This document shows positions 13,381-17,306 of a stretch of DNA of 44,707 nucleotides, piece after piece. Positions within the stretch are counted from its first letter, which is position 1. Each line of letters starts with the position of its first letter. Source of the DNA: a virus (Duplodnaviria; Heunggongvirae; Uroviricota; Caudoviricetes). Position numbers and translations under genes: made by a program. Location: the IMG/VR virus record IMGVR_UViG_3300010965_000004, positions 1-44,707 of that record; one strand, 5' to 3'. The notes below the pieces were generated by a model. That model was given only the letters and a program-made list of their open reading frames with translations, did no database searches and was not told the DNA's origin.

Positions 13381-13389
13381 TGGTATAAG
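13381..13389 (+). promoter_or_regulatory. Extended -10 promoter (TGGTATAAG)
   Basis: Recurrent motif followed by the AGGAGCCAA RBS. Confidence 0.7.
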
Positions 13390-14016: not shown

Positions 14017-14409
14017 ATGAGAAAATCCATTTTAACAATATACTTTGACCAGGATGAAGATAAACCTATGGCTTTAGTAGATGCTGAGGGAATGAAGTCT
14101 GAATACCCAACTATGGAGGTTAAGGTACAGAAAGTTGTGAGTATAGGGGATACCGACCACCATAATAGGATATTTACTTTCGAGATTAATAGGTCGTGTC
14201 TGTGGAAAATAACCGAAAGATGTAATTTCGCCACTCCCGCTTTGATAAATAGGTTAGCCGAGTATGGGATAAATTCCATAGATCAACTCAAAACTGTTAC
14301 AAAGGCAGATTTATTAGCTATGCCTAATTTGGGGAAAAAGGGGTTAGAAGATGCTAGACAACTGTTTGAAGAACTTGGTATTCCTCTACAGGAACATAGA
14401 ACTTTCTAA
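14017..14409 (+). CDS. Protein with C-terminal RNA polymerase alpha-subunit CTD-like (HhH) domain
   Basis: GINSIDQLKTVTKADLLAMPNLGKKGLEDARQLFEELGI resembles the alphaCTD segment [24 protein letters not shown]. Confidence 0.75.
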   Translation: MRKSILTIYFDQDEDKPMALVDAEGMKSEYPTMEVKVQKVVSIGDTDHHNRIFTFEINRSCLWKITERCNFATPALINRLAEYGINSIDQLKTVTKADLLAMPNLGKKGLEDARQLFEELGIPLQEHRTF

Positions 14410-14415
14410 CCAGGC

Positions 14416-14437
14416 AAGGGTCTTAGGACCCTTTTTT
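14416..14437 (+). terminator. Intrinsic terminator
   Basis: AAGGGTC-TTAG-GACCCTT plus T run. Confidence 0.85.
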
Positions 14438-14460: not shown

Positions 14461-14469
14461 TGGTATAAC
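14461..14469 (+). promoter_or_regulatory. Extended -10 promoter of the RT unit (TGGTATAAC)
   Basis: Recurrent motif directly after a terminator. Confidence 0.65.
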
Positions 14470-14541
14470 AGTTTTGAGATCATATTACGTGGTTGTAATA
14501 TAGGTCCATGCATTACTATAAAAATAAGAATGGAAATACAA

Positions 14542-14652
14542 ATGAGATTTTTTAACTTTTTAAAAGCAGCCGTTAGAGTCATCACCATAGTCCTACAAGT
14601 AGTTATCGCACTTCAAGCCGCAATGGAGGCTGCTCAAGGCGCTCAAGGTTAA
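14542..14652 (+). CDS. 36-aa hydrophobic peptide (absent from ORF track)
   Basis: MRFFNFLKAAVRVITIVLQVVIALQAAMEAAQGAQG*, GGA SD; alternative in-frame ATG at 14530. Confidence 0.5.
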   Translation: MRFFNFLKAAVRVITIVLQVVIALQAAMEAAQGAQG

Positions 14653-14680
14653 ATAACAACTAACAGAAAAAAGGTATGTT

Positions 14681-15127
14681 ATGTCAGTCAAGGTGGTACA
14701 CCCGAAGGAATCAAAGGGGGTATTAGAGCCGATGCTCAATACCTTTGCAGTAGCTAATGGAATATTGTACGATTATTACGCAATAAAGTTCGGGGAACGG
14801 AAAGGCCCCTATGTCGAACTTTTGAAACTTCCTCCGTTAATATCAGAGGGGTTTGTAACATTCGAACGTAAACTATACAAAGTACAATTAAGTGATTATA
14901 TCAGGAGAAGAGTAAATGTTACCAACCCTTATCGAGCCCCAGCAGCAGTCCCTTCCCCCAACGTCGATGTGGTCGAAACAATTCACGATACAAACAAACC
15001 AGCAGTTGTCCAAATTGCTAATGCTTCCCTCGACCAAGCTGTTGACTTGGCTTGGCAAGAGCAAATCGACGCACTACACTACCTTGACGATCCGGAAGAG
15101 GAATGGCTCCACCCGTTTACTCCATAA
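14681..15127 (+). CDS. Hypothetical RT-partner protein overlapping the RT 5' end by 212 nt
   Basis: 148-aa ORF with AAGGT SD, first long ORF of the RT transcription unit. Confidence 0.65.
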   Translation: MSVKVVHPKESKGVLEPMLNTFAVANGILYDYYAIKFGERKGPYVELLKLPPLISEGFVTFERKLYKVQLSDYIRRRVNVTNPYRAPAAVPSPNVDVVETIHDTNKPAVVQIANASLDQAVDLAWQEQIDALHYLDDPEEEWLHPFTP

Positions 15128-16019
15128 CCCTGATTCACTAATGAGGTTAGCTCAGTACCGCGTTCTGACAAAACTTTTCAACTTTTTGAATATCCCTAGT
15201 TATATCTATGCATTCGAAAAGAAGAAGTCCATACCTGCTATGGCAGCATTACACGTAAACAAAAAAGTAGTCATAAGTGTTGATATCAAAGACTTCTTTC
15301 ACAGCATCAAGCAAAACACTTTGGAAGCAAATTTCAGAGCTTTGGGTCTAGGAGAAAAACCCGCTAAAACTCTGTCTGAAATTTGTACCGTTAAATCGTT
15401 TGTACCGCAAGGGGCTTTGACTAGTCCCAAGATAGCTAATCTAATTACTGCTTTGACCTTTGGGCCCAAAATAAAAGAGTACTGTGATCAGCACAATCTG
15501 ATTGTTTCGATTTACGCGGATGATGTAACCATCTCTTCGGATGATCCTGAGATTAATGTCTCTGAGATTCTAAACTTCCTCAACACTTGTATTACGGAAT
15601 CAGGGTTTAGAATTAATAGAGAGAAAACCAAAGTAATGTGGAAGACTTCAAGACAGTACGTTTGTGGCGTTGTTGTTAATGCTAAAACTAATATGATGAA
15701 GAAGGAAAGATATAAGTTAAGAGCTATCGTTCATAACATTACAAAGAATGGTTTAGAAGTAGAAGCACAAAAGACTTCTTGCTTGCCAGATCAATTTGCC
15801 AGTCACATTAGAGGTAGACTGAATTGGTTGAAGCAATTGAATCCAGCACTAGGGGATAAGTATATACTGAAACTTAAAACTTATCTTGATAGGGTTAAGC
15901 AAGAAAAGACTGTAGAGCAAATGGCAGCATATACCTTGCTCGTTACAGAACCAACTGAAATTTTACCCCCCATTGAAAGCACGGCTCAAGTTCCTGAAAC
16001 TATTCAAGTACCTTGGTAA
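14916..16019 (+). CDS. Retron-type reverse transcriptase
   Basis: HY...IRKRNGSTRLLHNP, AALH (region X-like), DIKDFFHSI, PQGALTSP, YADD, EKTKV, VCGVVVN (VTG-like region Y); AGGAG SD 8 nt upstream. Confidence 0.9.
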   Translation: MLPTLIEPQQQSLPPTSMWSKQFTIQTNQQLSKLLMLPSTKLLTWLGKSKSTHYTTLTIRKRNGSTRLLHNPDSLMRLAQYRVLTKLFNFLNIPSYIYAFEKKKSIPAMAALHVNKKVVISVDIKDFFHSIKQNTLEANFRALGLGEKPAKTLSEICTVKSFVPQGALTSPKIANLITALTFGPKIKEYCDQHNLIVSIYADDVTISSDDPEINVSEILNFLNTCITESGFRINREKTKVMWKTSRQYVCGVVVNAKTNMMKKERYKLRAIVHNITKNGLEVEAQKTSCLPDQFASHIRGRLNWLKQLNPALGDKYILKLKTYLDRVKQEKTVEQMAAYTLLVTEPTEILPPIESTAQVPETIQVPW

Positions 16020-16023
16020 AAAT

Positions 16024-16032
16024 TGGTATAAG
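16024..16032 (+). promoter_or_regulatory. Extended -10 promoter (TGGTATAAG) driving a non-coding unit
   Basis: Recurrent motif 4 nt after the RT stop, with no long ORF downstream. Confidence 0.65.
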
Positions 16033-16038
16033 ATTAGT

Positions 16039-16240
16039 AGAAGGATATTAGGTTGTAAAGCAATTGTAATTGAAACAAAGAGCTGTTGTTACCTCACAGA
16101 ATAAAACCCAGCGGGTCGGGTTTCCATTTAAAAGGACAAAATAAATGGTTTATATAAAATTGACGTTGTTAGTGAGGATGTGTAACAAATCATTTTAACT
16201 TACATGGAAAGAGGCCTCCCGAAAGGGGGCTTCTTTTTTT
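16039..16240 (+). ncRNA. Candidate RT-associated (msr-msd-like) ncRNA
   Basis: Own promoter and terminator; long-range pairing TTGTTAC-CTCAC (16086-16097) with GTGAG-GTAACAA (16172-16188) encloses hairpins AAACCC/GGGTTT and CCATTTA/TAAATGG. Confidence 0.55.
16208..16240. terminator. Intrinsic terminator (probably bidirectional)
   Basis: GAGGCCTCCC-GAAA-GGGGGCTTC followed by T run, at a convergent junction. Confidence 0.8.
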
Positions 16241-17306
16241 ACCCCAAATGAACTCCAGAAGAGTCTATGTGCATGAAGTGTCCAGAGTAGTCTGCCTGTA
16301 TTCCTGAGGCGTTAAGATTTACAGTAGAACCACCAAACTTAACATTTACATGAGAAGCATCGAGAAGCACCGTTGAGTTCCCTCCGTGGTCTATTGTTAT
16401 AGATCCTGGAAGAATAGTAATTATTGAATTAGTCCCATTAGTTACGCTGGCTTCCCACTTAGAGTTATCGTGAGTAGTTGTAGTAGTTCCTCCATTGTGT
16501 ACTACAACCACAATCTTACCGTCGTCAGTTAGAACTTCGGTCATAAGCTCTGACCCAGCATTATTCTCTAAAGAGTATTTTCTGATACGAGAGTCTTTAG
16601 CTGGCAAAGTGATATCCGGGTTGGGGTCTCCTTTGAGAACTTCTCCAGCCGCTACGTCCCCAACAATATCTTTTAACTCATAGATGGAAACCTTTGATCT
16701 GTTTAAGTTTCTGTCCCAACCAATAAACTCATACATTCTACCACTAACATTGGCAATGGTTTGTTGACCAATATCCGACATTCTTTCCCAGTTTCTAGCG
16801 ACTACCCTAACTAAGTCATCAAACTTAGAAACAATTATTTGAGCTAGTGGTGAGGATTTTATCAATGCACTACCATTGGCTAGCATAGCAAAGATACCGC
16901 CACCTTCTGTTGTTATTACGTAATCACCAGGAGTGAAGTCAGAAGGTTTGTTAGGGTTAGCTGAATATCCGTTTCTCATGTCGCTGGAATTACCGCCGTC
17001 TACAGCTAATGTAGCTCCCGTAACGTTTGTTAATTCTGTTGTAGGTAACCCCATCCTAGGCAAGGAACCAATAATAATTGGGTAGGACAAGGAAGTAGAA
17101 ATAACTACCTGATCTCCCACATTGGGAGAAATATGCATACCCGATTTACCAGCTCCTCCGGTTGGGAGTAGCCATTGAACCTGGTCAAAGAATTGACCTT
17201 TCATTGTTTTAACAGAACAGACAAAACGTATAGGATCTACATTTGTTACAGTTCCTTCAATGAAGTTTGAATCATAAGAATGGGGTGAACTAAATAAACC
17301 TGACAT
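16239..17306 (-). CDS. Baseplate central spike / gpV-like protein
   Basis: N-terminal OB-fold pattern (GTVTNVD...VQWL...PNVGDQVVI...IIGSL) and C-terminal beta-helix repeats ending in His-rich HFMHID. Confidence 0.75.
   Translation of the reverse strand: MSGLFSSPHSYDSNFIEGTVTNVDPIRFVCSVKTMKGQFFDQVQWLLPTGGAGKSGMHISPNVGDQVVISTSLSYPIIIGSLPRMGLPTTELTNVTGATLAVDGGNSSDMRNGYSANPNKPSDFTPGDYVITTEGGGIFAMLANGSALIKSSPLAQIIVSKFDDLVRVVARNWERMSDIGQQTIANVSGRMYEFIGWDRNLNRSKVSIYELKDIVGDVAAGEVLKGDPNPDITLPAKDSRIRKYSLENNAGSELMTEVLTDDGKIVVVVHNGGTTTTTHDNSKWEASVTNGTNSIITILPGSITIDHGGNSTVLLDASHVNVKFGGSTVNLNASGIQADYSGHFMHIDSSGVHLG

Follow-up and report, generated by a model that had tools for sequence, protein, structure and literature searches.

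Reverse transcriptases (RTs) of the retron type are bacterial anti-phage sensors with an upstream template RNA, and the enzymes of the retron clade work with a dedicated adjacent RNA. Here we consider a 44,707-nt stretch of DNA (hereafter the window) from a tailed phage of the class Caudoviricetes, part of a 108,707-nt IMG/VR virus record (IMGVR_UViG_3300010965_000004, estimated to be 61% complete), in which a retron-clade RT gene is directly followed by a non-coding interval of about 200 nt. An earlier reading of this DNA (the original prediction) had proposed that the interval encodes a separately promoted, structured RNA with a stem resembling the a1/a2 stem of retrons and a candidate branching G; a structure-gated peptide and a gene dependent on complementary DNA (cDNA), as in DRT2, were named as alternatives.

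The classical retron, represented by the msr-msd of Retron-Eco1/Ec86 (type II-A), resembles this locus in that the RNA of the window adjoins a retron-clade RT and contains inverted repeats that could close it, with a G two bases past the 5′ arm. Unlike the classical non-coding RNA, which lies directly upstream of the RT on the same transcript, that of the window lies downstream; moreover, its arms are marginal, the G is not conserved, a long msd stem is missing, a translatable frame is present, and the PADLOC result for the window includes no effector of a known retron type. The classical reading (a1/a2 stem, branching G and msd) fails or is inconclusive on most of its defining features.

The nearest published analogue is the hybrid RNA (hyRNA) of the type VI retron Retron-Vpa2, which joins a template to a small open reading frame (ORF), has its Shine-Dalgarno sequence and AUG in stem-loops and carries end-to-end inverted repeats, and whose operon runs in the order small protein, accessory protein, RT (bioRxiv 10.1101/2025.10.22.683967). 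The window likewise combines RT-related structure with a Shine-Dalgarno sequence, an AUG and a small ORF on one RNA, has inverted repeats resembling a1/a2 that could close its ends, and places a small hydrophobic peptide and a small accessory protein before the RT. However, the hyRNA stands in front of the RT, whereas the RNA of the window stands behind it and has its own promoter; the hydrophobic peptide of the window is encoded upstream rather than in the RNA, whose mini-ORF is not conserved; and the accessory protein is modelled as a β-barrel with a helix, not as a helix-turn-helix protein. Furthermore, the RT scores best with type III-A (235 bits) and lower with type VI (177 bits), which belongs to clade 3; the start signals are not sequestered according to accessibility prediction, and no conserved ORF for a toxic small protein is seen; and the element resides in a large phage of lytic type, not in a bacterial defence island.

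Among phages, jumbo phages are known to encode retron-like RTs to which no function has been assigned; gp206 of Staphylococcus phage MarsHill is such an RT with an adjacent non-coding stretch, a 1.2-kb block upstream of the RT, that was proposed to hold an RNA, and with no recognised effector (bioRxiv 10.1101/2020.12.14.422802). The RT of the window is similarly retron-like, without a recognised effector, and encoded by a large phage of virulent type; unlike gp206 it belongs to another family (at most 33% identity to any RT of an isolate phage), and its non-coding part spans about 200 nt, lies downstream and has its own promoter. A literature search found no description of the RT family of the window's phage or of its downstream RNA. 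New here are the protein-coding nature of the region upstream of the RT, the pairing between operon leader and downstream RNA in relatives, and a recurrent mini-ORF with non-conserved peptides.

The transcription unit behind the reverse transcriptase

The RT and the elements that delimit the downstream unit are as follows:
14916-16019, plus strand: reverse transcriptase of the retron clade, 367 aa (Pfam RVT_1, PADLOC and structure search)
16017-16019, plus strand: RT stop codon, TAA
16024-16031, plus strand: extended -10 promoter of the downstream RNA, TGGTATAA; with the next base, TGGTATAAG, 16024-16032 (motif enrichment and relatives)
16039-16240, plus strand: RNA unit of about 200 nt, also the 3′ untranslated region (3′ UTR) of the RT operon
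about 16207-16240, both strands: strong bidirectional intrinsic terminator, shared with the convergent baseplate-like gene
16239-17306, minus strand: baseplate-like gene, convergent

The promoter is the strongest and a well-supported part of the original prediction, all of whose listed sequence features are present where it had placed them. Examination of the window reveals 11 copies of TGGTATAA against 1.72 expected, a count reached in 0 of 100 shuffles, and on the plus strand the motif directly follows terminators and precedes early genes at 13381, 13964, 14461 and 16024. In 11 of the 12 closer relatives the exact motif, (T)TGGTATAAG, recurs 4-18 nt past the RT stop (L184, L185, L186, L188, L190, L193, L197, L198, L082, L002 and the window itself), and the twelfth, L143, has the variant TGCAATAAT 16 nt past it. 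This enrichment and conservation bear out a promoter 4 nt after the RT stop, from which transcription would start near 16039. Relatives also carry homologous terminators, ending in ..TTTTAGCC. Because the plus strand holds no terminator between 14434 and 16207, the interval plays two parts, as the 3′ UTR of the RT operon and as an RNA with a promoter of its own. In this respect the sequence supports an RNA of about 200 nt that has its own promoter and terminator and immediately follows a retron-clade RT.

The RT itself matches Pfam RVT_1 (4.2e-26) and, among the PADLOC retron models, RT_III-A best (3.6e-70, 235 bits), followed by types XII and XIII (220-222 bits), with II-A similar and RT_VI at 177 bits. 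Its nearest solved structure is the RT of Ec86 (3e-29). The motifs YADD, QGALTSP and VCG are readable and the active site is intact. Metagenome protein collections yielded 332 relatives at E <= 1e-20, among which the long N-terminal form of the enzyme is kept, with good conservation from about residue 25. Isolate phages, by contrast, furnished neither an RT above 33% identity nor any DNA match to the window. The region upstream of the RT encodes a peptide and an overlapping partner protein that are conserved at the protein level, and hence cannot accommodate a classic msr-msd; within the module, non-coding sequence of appreciable length is confined to the RNA downstream of the RT. As read from the sequence, the order of the module is peptide, partner protein, retron-clade RT and RNA.

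As to the early region at large, the early genes are laid out as many short units, each with a TGGTATAA(G) extended -10 motif and a similar initial transcribed sequence (motif sites at 13381, 13964, 14461, 16024, 24250, 25119, 5144 and 1899), and each ending in a hairpin terminator followed by TTTT(T)AGC(C/T).

Downstream RNAs of relatives and their pairing with the operon leader

At 26 distinct related loci a non-coding sequence of 60-350 nt separates the RT from a terminator, and this order holds even where the next gene differs (L153, L154 and L163). The RNAs diverge rapidly: in all-against-all blastn comparisons, alignments across subgroups are confined to the promoter, the terminator and the neighbouring gene, k-mers shared across the downstream RNAs do not rise above the null, and a covariance model built from L184-186 matched neither the RNA of the window nor those of the other subgroups. 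A pattern scan for close homologues with CGTAGCCYAGRCTCTTCC returned none; one with CCTCACAGAATAAAA returned 42 matches, a number that fits chance, none of them adjoining a related RT, although at one of these loci (L221) a distant RT of 29% identity lies about 2 kb from the motif. The DNA-level comparison covers the relatives other than P0005 and P0004, whose RTs are the closest (72-74% identity). The longer RNAs of relatives are strongly structured, with z-scores of -4.3 in L188, -4.8 in L193, -3.6 in L197 and -4.6 in L198 (quoted range for these longer RNAs, -2.7 to -4.8).

One set of relatives, here termed group B (L004, L145-L148 and L150), displays several covarying hairpins, one of them inside an apparent short ORF (GCAGU/ACUGC, GCGGU/ACCGC, GCAGC/GCUGU), and indels that disrupt the frame of the peptide; RNA-level selection is apparent in the alignment of this group. 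The nearest relatives, L184-186, with RTs 70-76% identical to that of the window, have RNAs that fold in a layout like that of the window: a closing stem of 4-8 bp, an A-rich linker, a hairpin of 5-6 bp with an 8-nt loop, the string UUCC..A-rich..AAGGA, a spacing of 5-8 nt, and an AUG. The string UUCC..A-rich..AAGGA..AUG is common to the window and L184-186. In the latter the short frame after the AUG passes through the 3′ arm of the closing stem, and in the window this 3′ arm lies 24 nt past the AUG. The hairpin equivalent to P2 of the window (see below) shows two compensatory pairs between L184 and L185/186, and, when read by eye, the window and L188 add further versions of the stem. The closing stems themselves differ (CCUCAC/GUGAGG in the window versus (U)ACGCC/GGCG(U) in L184-186), and are best described as similar in architecture rather than as proven homologues.

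A separate motif, UAAA(A)CGG, recurs within the first 20 nt after the RT stop in L152, L153, L154, L163, L156 and L082; in L154 and L156 it forms part of the arm that pairs with the operon leader.

The leader concerned lies at the start of the operon, whose parts ahead of the RT are as follows:
14461-14468, plus strand: extended -10 promoter TGGTATAA of the peptide-partner-RT operon, after the terminator at 14416-14433
14473-14485, plus strand: 5′ leader arm of the operon mRNA, TTTGAGATCATAT
14542-14652, plus strand: small hydrophobic/amphipathic peptide, 36 aa (40 aa if begun at the ATG at 14530)
14681-15127, plus strand: partner protein, 148 aa, conserved in more than 20 relatives

In several related lineages the RNA downstream of the RT pairs with the 5′ leader of its own operon over 10-13 perfect bp. 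In group B these helices comprise 12-13 perfect bp and their arms change together (CTCCGGAAGCAG in L147/L148 and CTCGAAGAAGCAG in L145/L150), L004 having a bulged variant; elsewhere they comprise 13 bp in L156, 12 bp located in a hairpin loop in L152, and 10 bp plus 6 bp in L154. In shuffle tests L145, L147, L150, L154 and L156 reached P <= 0.002, and control windows inside the RT gene never exceeded 9 bp; the helix of L152 was judged solely by a matrix of cognate and non-cognate leader-RNA pairs, not by shuffling. In this matrix helices of 12-13 bp occur, with one exception, only in cognate or same-subgroup pairs, the non-cognate mean being 7.1 bp. L184-186 display three colinear helices (duplex z -2.0 to -2.9): the first joins xUGAGAC at the 5′ end of the leader to GUCUCAx just past the AUG of the mini-ORF, and between L184 and L185 a U>C change in the leader is compensated by an A>G change in the RNA; the second joins CUUGGAAG to CUUCCAAG; the third joins CUACGG to a hairpin loop, CCGUAG. 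The cognate specificity of the helices and their concordant changes tie the RNA to the RT module, and we regard it as probable that the RNA unit belongs functionally to this module.

The single exception in the matrix involves the window: its leader arm (14473-14485) is perfectly complementary over 13 nt to the start region of the mini-ORF in the RNA of L186, and it finds no partner in the window's own RNA or elsewhere in the 108-kb record. We infer that leader-RNA pairing may be ancestral in the lineage of the window, and that the arm on the RNA side would have changed to CCUCAC, which now matches GUGAGG within the same RNA.

The complementarity seen in relatives would equally be expected if the RNA acted as a riboregulator of the RT operon without being reverse transcribed. 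By pairing with the leader, in trans when made from its own promoter or in cis as a 3′ UTR, it would govern translation or stability of the peptide and of the genes behind it, much as type I antitoxin RNAs do. The small peptide shares its hydrophobic character with type I toxins, and the best match within the window, TTTCCATT (16121-16128) with AATGGAAA (14529-14536), falls over the ribosome-binding region of the peptide. However, this 8-bp match, the longest helix between leader and RNA in the window, is at chance level (P ~0.3); the paired leader segments of the relatives are mostly the 5′ end and the 5′ hairpin rather than the ribosome-binding site; and an intact RT in the module would be left unexplained. 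We therefore judge a purely regulatory RNA to be distinctly unlikely.

The mini-ORF and the fold of the window's RNA

The RNA of the window contains the following features:
16070-16144, plus strand: frame A, TTG and 23 codons, without a Shine-Dalgarno sequence, containing ..TSQNK..
16086-16097, plus strand: 5′ arm of the local closing helix (a1 of the original prediction), TTGTTAC+CTCAC, with the core CCTCAC at 16092-16097 (minimum free energy (MFE) and centroid folds)
16104-16123, plus strand: hairpin P2, AAACCC/GGGTTT, stem of 5-6 bp, loop of 8 nt
16124-16148, plus strand: weak A/U hairpin, CCATTTA/TAAATGG, with AAGGA (16132-16136) in its loop and the ATG at 16145 in its 3′ stem; TTCC (16122-16125) could pair with GGAA
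16145-16198, plus strand: frame B, the mini-ORF, 17 codons with a good Shine-Dalgarno sequence, running through the 3′ arm of the closing helix
16149-16158, plus strand: palindrome TTTATATAAA (from sequence)
16172-16188, plus strand: 3′ arm (a2 of the original prediction), GTGAG(G) at 16172-16176, a 5-nt bulge, and GTAACAA at 16182-16188

In 17 of the 26 downstream regions, as against 3.4 expected from shuffles, a Shine-Dalgarno sequence accompanies a start codon that opens a frame of at least 12 codons, and three further downstream RNAs were missed in this count solely through a misplaced terminator. The encoded peptides (17-37 aa) are neither conserved in sequence nor hydrophobic, and close relatives agree more in the 5′ untranslated part than in the frame. 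This suggests that it is the presence of a translatable frame, rather than the peptide itself, that may matter. In the window the stop of frame A abuts the start of frame B (TAAATG, with the in-frame TAA at 16142-16144); the segment of frame A encoding ..TSQNK.. is identical over 16 nt, ACCTCACAGAATAAAA, to the beginning of the L082 mini-ORF, and frame A is probably a decayed copy of an L082-type mini-ORF. A peptide gated by RNA structure, one of the alternatives first raised, receives little encouragement from accessibility prediction: the start region of the window's mini-ORF scores 0.63, above the median of ordinary genes (0.52), and the set-wide difference (mean 0.46 in downstream RNAs versus 0.53 in 23 ordinary window genes) is not significant (p = 0.08).

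The other alternative, that the RNA is a template for rolling-circle reverse transcription as in DRT2, giving rise to a concatemeric cDNA gene that begins at the ATG at 16145, draws only on the presence of a Shine-Dalgarno sequence and an ATG inside an RT-adjacent RNA. Against it, the RT scores as a member of the retron clade and not of UG/DRT2, no direct repeats mark a template jump (a 7-nt repeat, GTTGTTA, is expected by chance), and the frame is preceded immediately by the in-frame TAA and followed after 17 codons by another TAA, which limits a stop-free unit to at most 51 nt. As these in-frame stops flank the frame, the Shine-Dalgarno sequence cannot sit in an endless repeat unit, and a DRT2-like gene is very unlikely, to the point of being negligible. 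A diversity-generating retroelement was likewise considered and rejected: the RNA has no second copy in the 108-kb record, and the RT motif QGALTSP is retron-like.

With respect to the fold, the arms of the a1/a2-like stem are present as first described, 12 bp with a 5-nt bulge. Their identity as a retron-type stem is another matter, since the statistics are marginal. The long closing helix (16060-16100 with 16165-16206; dG -17.7) attains p = 0.029 against shuffles, and perfect arms of 7 bp and 6 bp have chance probabilities of about 0.05 and 0.21, respectively. The MFE z-score of the RNA is -1.75 with the terminator and +0.10 without it, so that the "structured RNA" of the original prediction does not exceed chance in the window. 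Across the downstream RNAs as a set, pairing between the first and last third of each RNA is not above shuffles (mean z +0.14). The present sequence data do not show the RNA to be a classic retron template.

A fold energy no better than that of shuffled sequences, and stems within the genomic background, are what one would expect of an inert spacer, that is, a 3′ UTR and shared terminator of convergent operons with a fortuitous promoter-like motif and chance stems. An Rfam scan at E <= 10 returned only noise (leader and terminator look-alikes), with no family match, and no motif is common across subgroups, both of which agree with such a spacer. However, the promoter motif holds its exact place in 11 of the 12 closer relatives, and in variant form in L143, even as the RNA behind it diverges; the mini-ORFs are enriched; the P2-type hairpin is preserved via compensatory changes; and other convergent junctions in relatives span just 56-60 nt. 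We accordingly consider an inert spacer quite improbable.

Several observations weigh against taking the RNA as the partner of the RT, beginning with the window itself. Its fold, with the terminator excluded, is no more stable than chance, and the closing helix is statistically marginal, being equalled by 9.8% of segment pairs of the same geometry in the window. The hairpins between the arms comprise only 6-7 bp, without a long msd-like stem (longer hairpins are present in relatives L188-L198). G16099, put forward as the branching G, sits 2 nt beyond the 5′ arm, and the nearest relatives L184-186 have at that spot the linker C(C)AAAAG, with the first G 5-7 nt away; G16099 has no conserved counterpart there. 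The leader helix of the relatives has, as described above, no counterpart above chance in the window. Moreover, the body of the RNA aligns with none of the sequences obtained, so that its helices draw no support from covariation.

The remaining points on that side come from the relatives. About seven RT relatives lack a downstream RNA (L003, L144, L158, L162, L164, L166 and L168): the next gene starts immediately, or a bare terminator follows, and L162 has one short hairpin only after the RT. One related phage has its RT about 15 kb from the slot beside the baseplate-like gene, and this slot is still filled, by a TTTTTGGTATAAG-driven unit of about 170 nt behind a gene other than an RT, which has only the promoter in common with the window. 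This slot may take up small cassettes irrespective of the RT. An initial single-sequence search for relatives of the baseplate-like gene gave no matches.

Both the RNA-less relatives and the filled slot speak for an autonomous early-gene cassette that genome layout has placed by chance at the junction of the rightward early and leftward virion genes, with a fast-evolving micro-peptide or leader-type ORF and no mechanistic link to the RT. The phage early region is built of such units, each with TGGTATAA and a terminator, and the excess of translatable frames together with the accessible start region predicted for the window point in the same direction. On the other hand, the peptides lack a conserved sequence and the 5′ untranslated part is kept better than the frame; group B combines frame-breaking indels with covarying hairpins within the frame; and a CAA/CAG change that distinguishes L184 from L185 and looks synonymous has its counterpart in a change of the operon leader. 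Furthermore, the RNA pairs with the leader of the RT operon in several lineages, and the RT and the unit are not separated by a terminator. On this evidence a cassette independent of the RT is unlikely.

The upstream genes and the proposed RNA partner

The operon promoter motif of the TGGTATAA type also precedes the homologous operons of relatives, and peptides of 36-56 aa (M[KR]FF.FLKAA...) occupy the same operon position in them. The last 70 codons of the partner overlap the N-terminal part of the RT gene in the +1 frame (14916-15127 in the window); more than 20 relatives preserve both overlapping frames, with an overlap of 140-368 nt that is always in the +1 frame, and the overlapped tail of the partner has the motif ADLAW.EQI.ALL..DDPEEEW. 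The structure model of the partner predicts with confidence a small β-barrel, together with a long helix and an acidic tail. None of the PDB structures matches it clearly: Foldseek gave no match at E <= 0.001, and the best VIA-align matches (Z 5.0 to the PilZ-like MotI and Z 4.9 to a split barrel) are too weak for naming the fold.

Some further features of the module and its surroundings deserve mention. The C-terminus of the RT (15990-16019) and of aligned relatives carries a conserved acidic stretch and then, as the last residues or close to them, [VIL]-P-W or P-F. This resembles the tail of bacterial single-stranded DNA-binding protein (..DDDIPF), and the tail of the partner is also acidic-aromatic (DDPEEEW). 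Between the stop of the small peptide and the ribosome-binding site of the partner, a small hairpin of the GGUAG-UAA-CUACC type is conserved in L004, L145, L147, L150, L153, L155 and L151; the window has no hairpin at that site (TAACAACTAAC, 14656-14666). In 11 of 26 fetched viral loci, several of them duplicates of each other, the contig breaks off only 0.4-1 kb ahead of the partner gene; such ends fall on the upstream side of the module in every case and on its downstream side in none (L144-L146, L149-L155 and L166), a pattern that suggests a genome terminus or a recurrent assembly break at this point. Finally, 14017-14409 encodes a stand-alone 130-aa protein whose C-terminal part matches the C-terminal domain of the RNA polymerase alpha subunit (Pfam, 5.2e-06); it has its own promoter and terminator and is kept beside the RT module in L184.

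In light of the above-described contextual connections, we propose that the interval is a true transcription unit of small size, which forms the fourth component of a phage RT module. Two sources would supply the RNA: the operon transcript, of which it is the 3′ end, and its own extended -10 promoter, which would yield more of it. In this phage the leader pairing would have been lost, with the local CCUCAC/GUGAGG helix, possibly extended by UUGUUAC/GUAACAA, closing the RNA on itself. The RNA might then serve as a dedicated partner of the RT, whether as template or as scaffold, with arms that close it in the manner of a retron. Its Shine-Dalgarno sequence and AUG could load ribosomes onto the mini-ORF, and as the frame runs through the 3′ arm of the closing helix, it would be the act of translation, not the product, that matters. 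Reverse transcription of the RNA and the roles given here to the closing helix and to translation are all inferred.

That the RNA is the partner of the RT, as template or scaffold, and also carries the mini-ORF is a tentative proposal, to which the comparative sequence evidence lends a little short of an even chance. A more complete scenario, possible but on balance doubtful, is that related large lytic phages share an RNA partner of the RT that is closed by arms. In some lineages the arms would lie 1.7 kb apart, in the leader and the 3′ UTR, enclosing three genes, and in the lineage of the window the RNA would have become a free-standing, separately promoted, self-closing hybrid that loads ribosomes on a mini-ORF; the whole would be a device owned by the phage rather than a bacterial defence. 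Were this scenario true, translation and cDNA synthesis would compete on one small RNA.

In any case, the RT family carries a fixed four-part module with the RNA part on the "wrong" side of the enzyme. If the RNA is a substrate of the RT, the a1/a2 logic of retrons would prove open to rearrangement, with the arms placed around an entire operon or brought together in an RNA gene of their own. Such a module would then offer a compact, self-contained RT/RNA pair of about 1.8 kb for probing how phages use reverse transcription, and a natural design with the template on its own promoter that would be relevant to retron-based DNA production.

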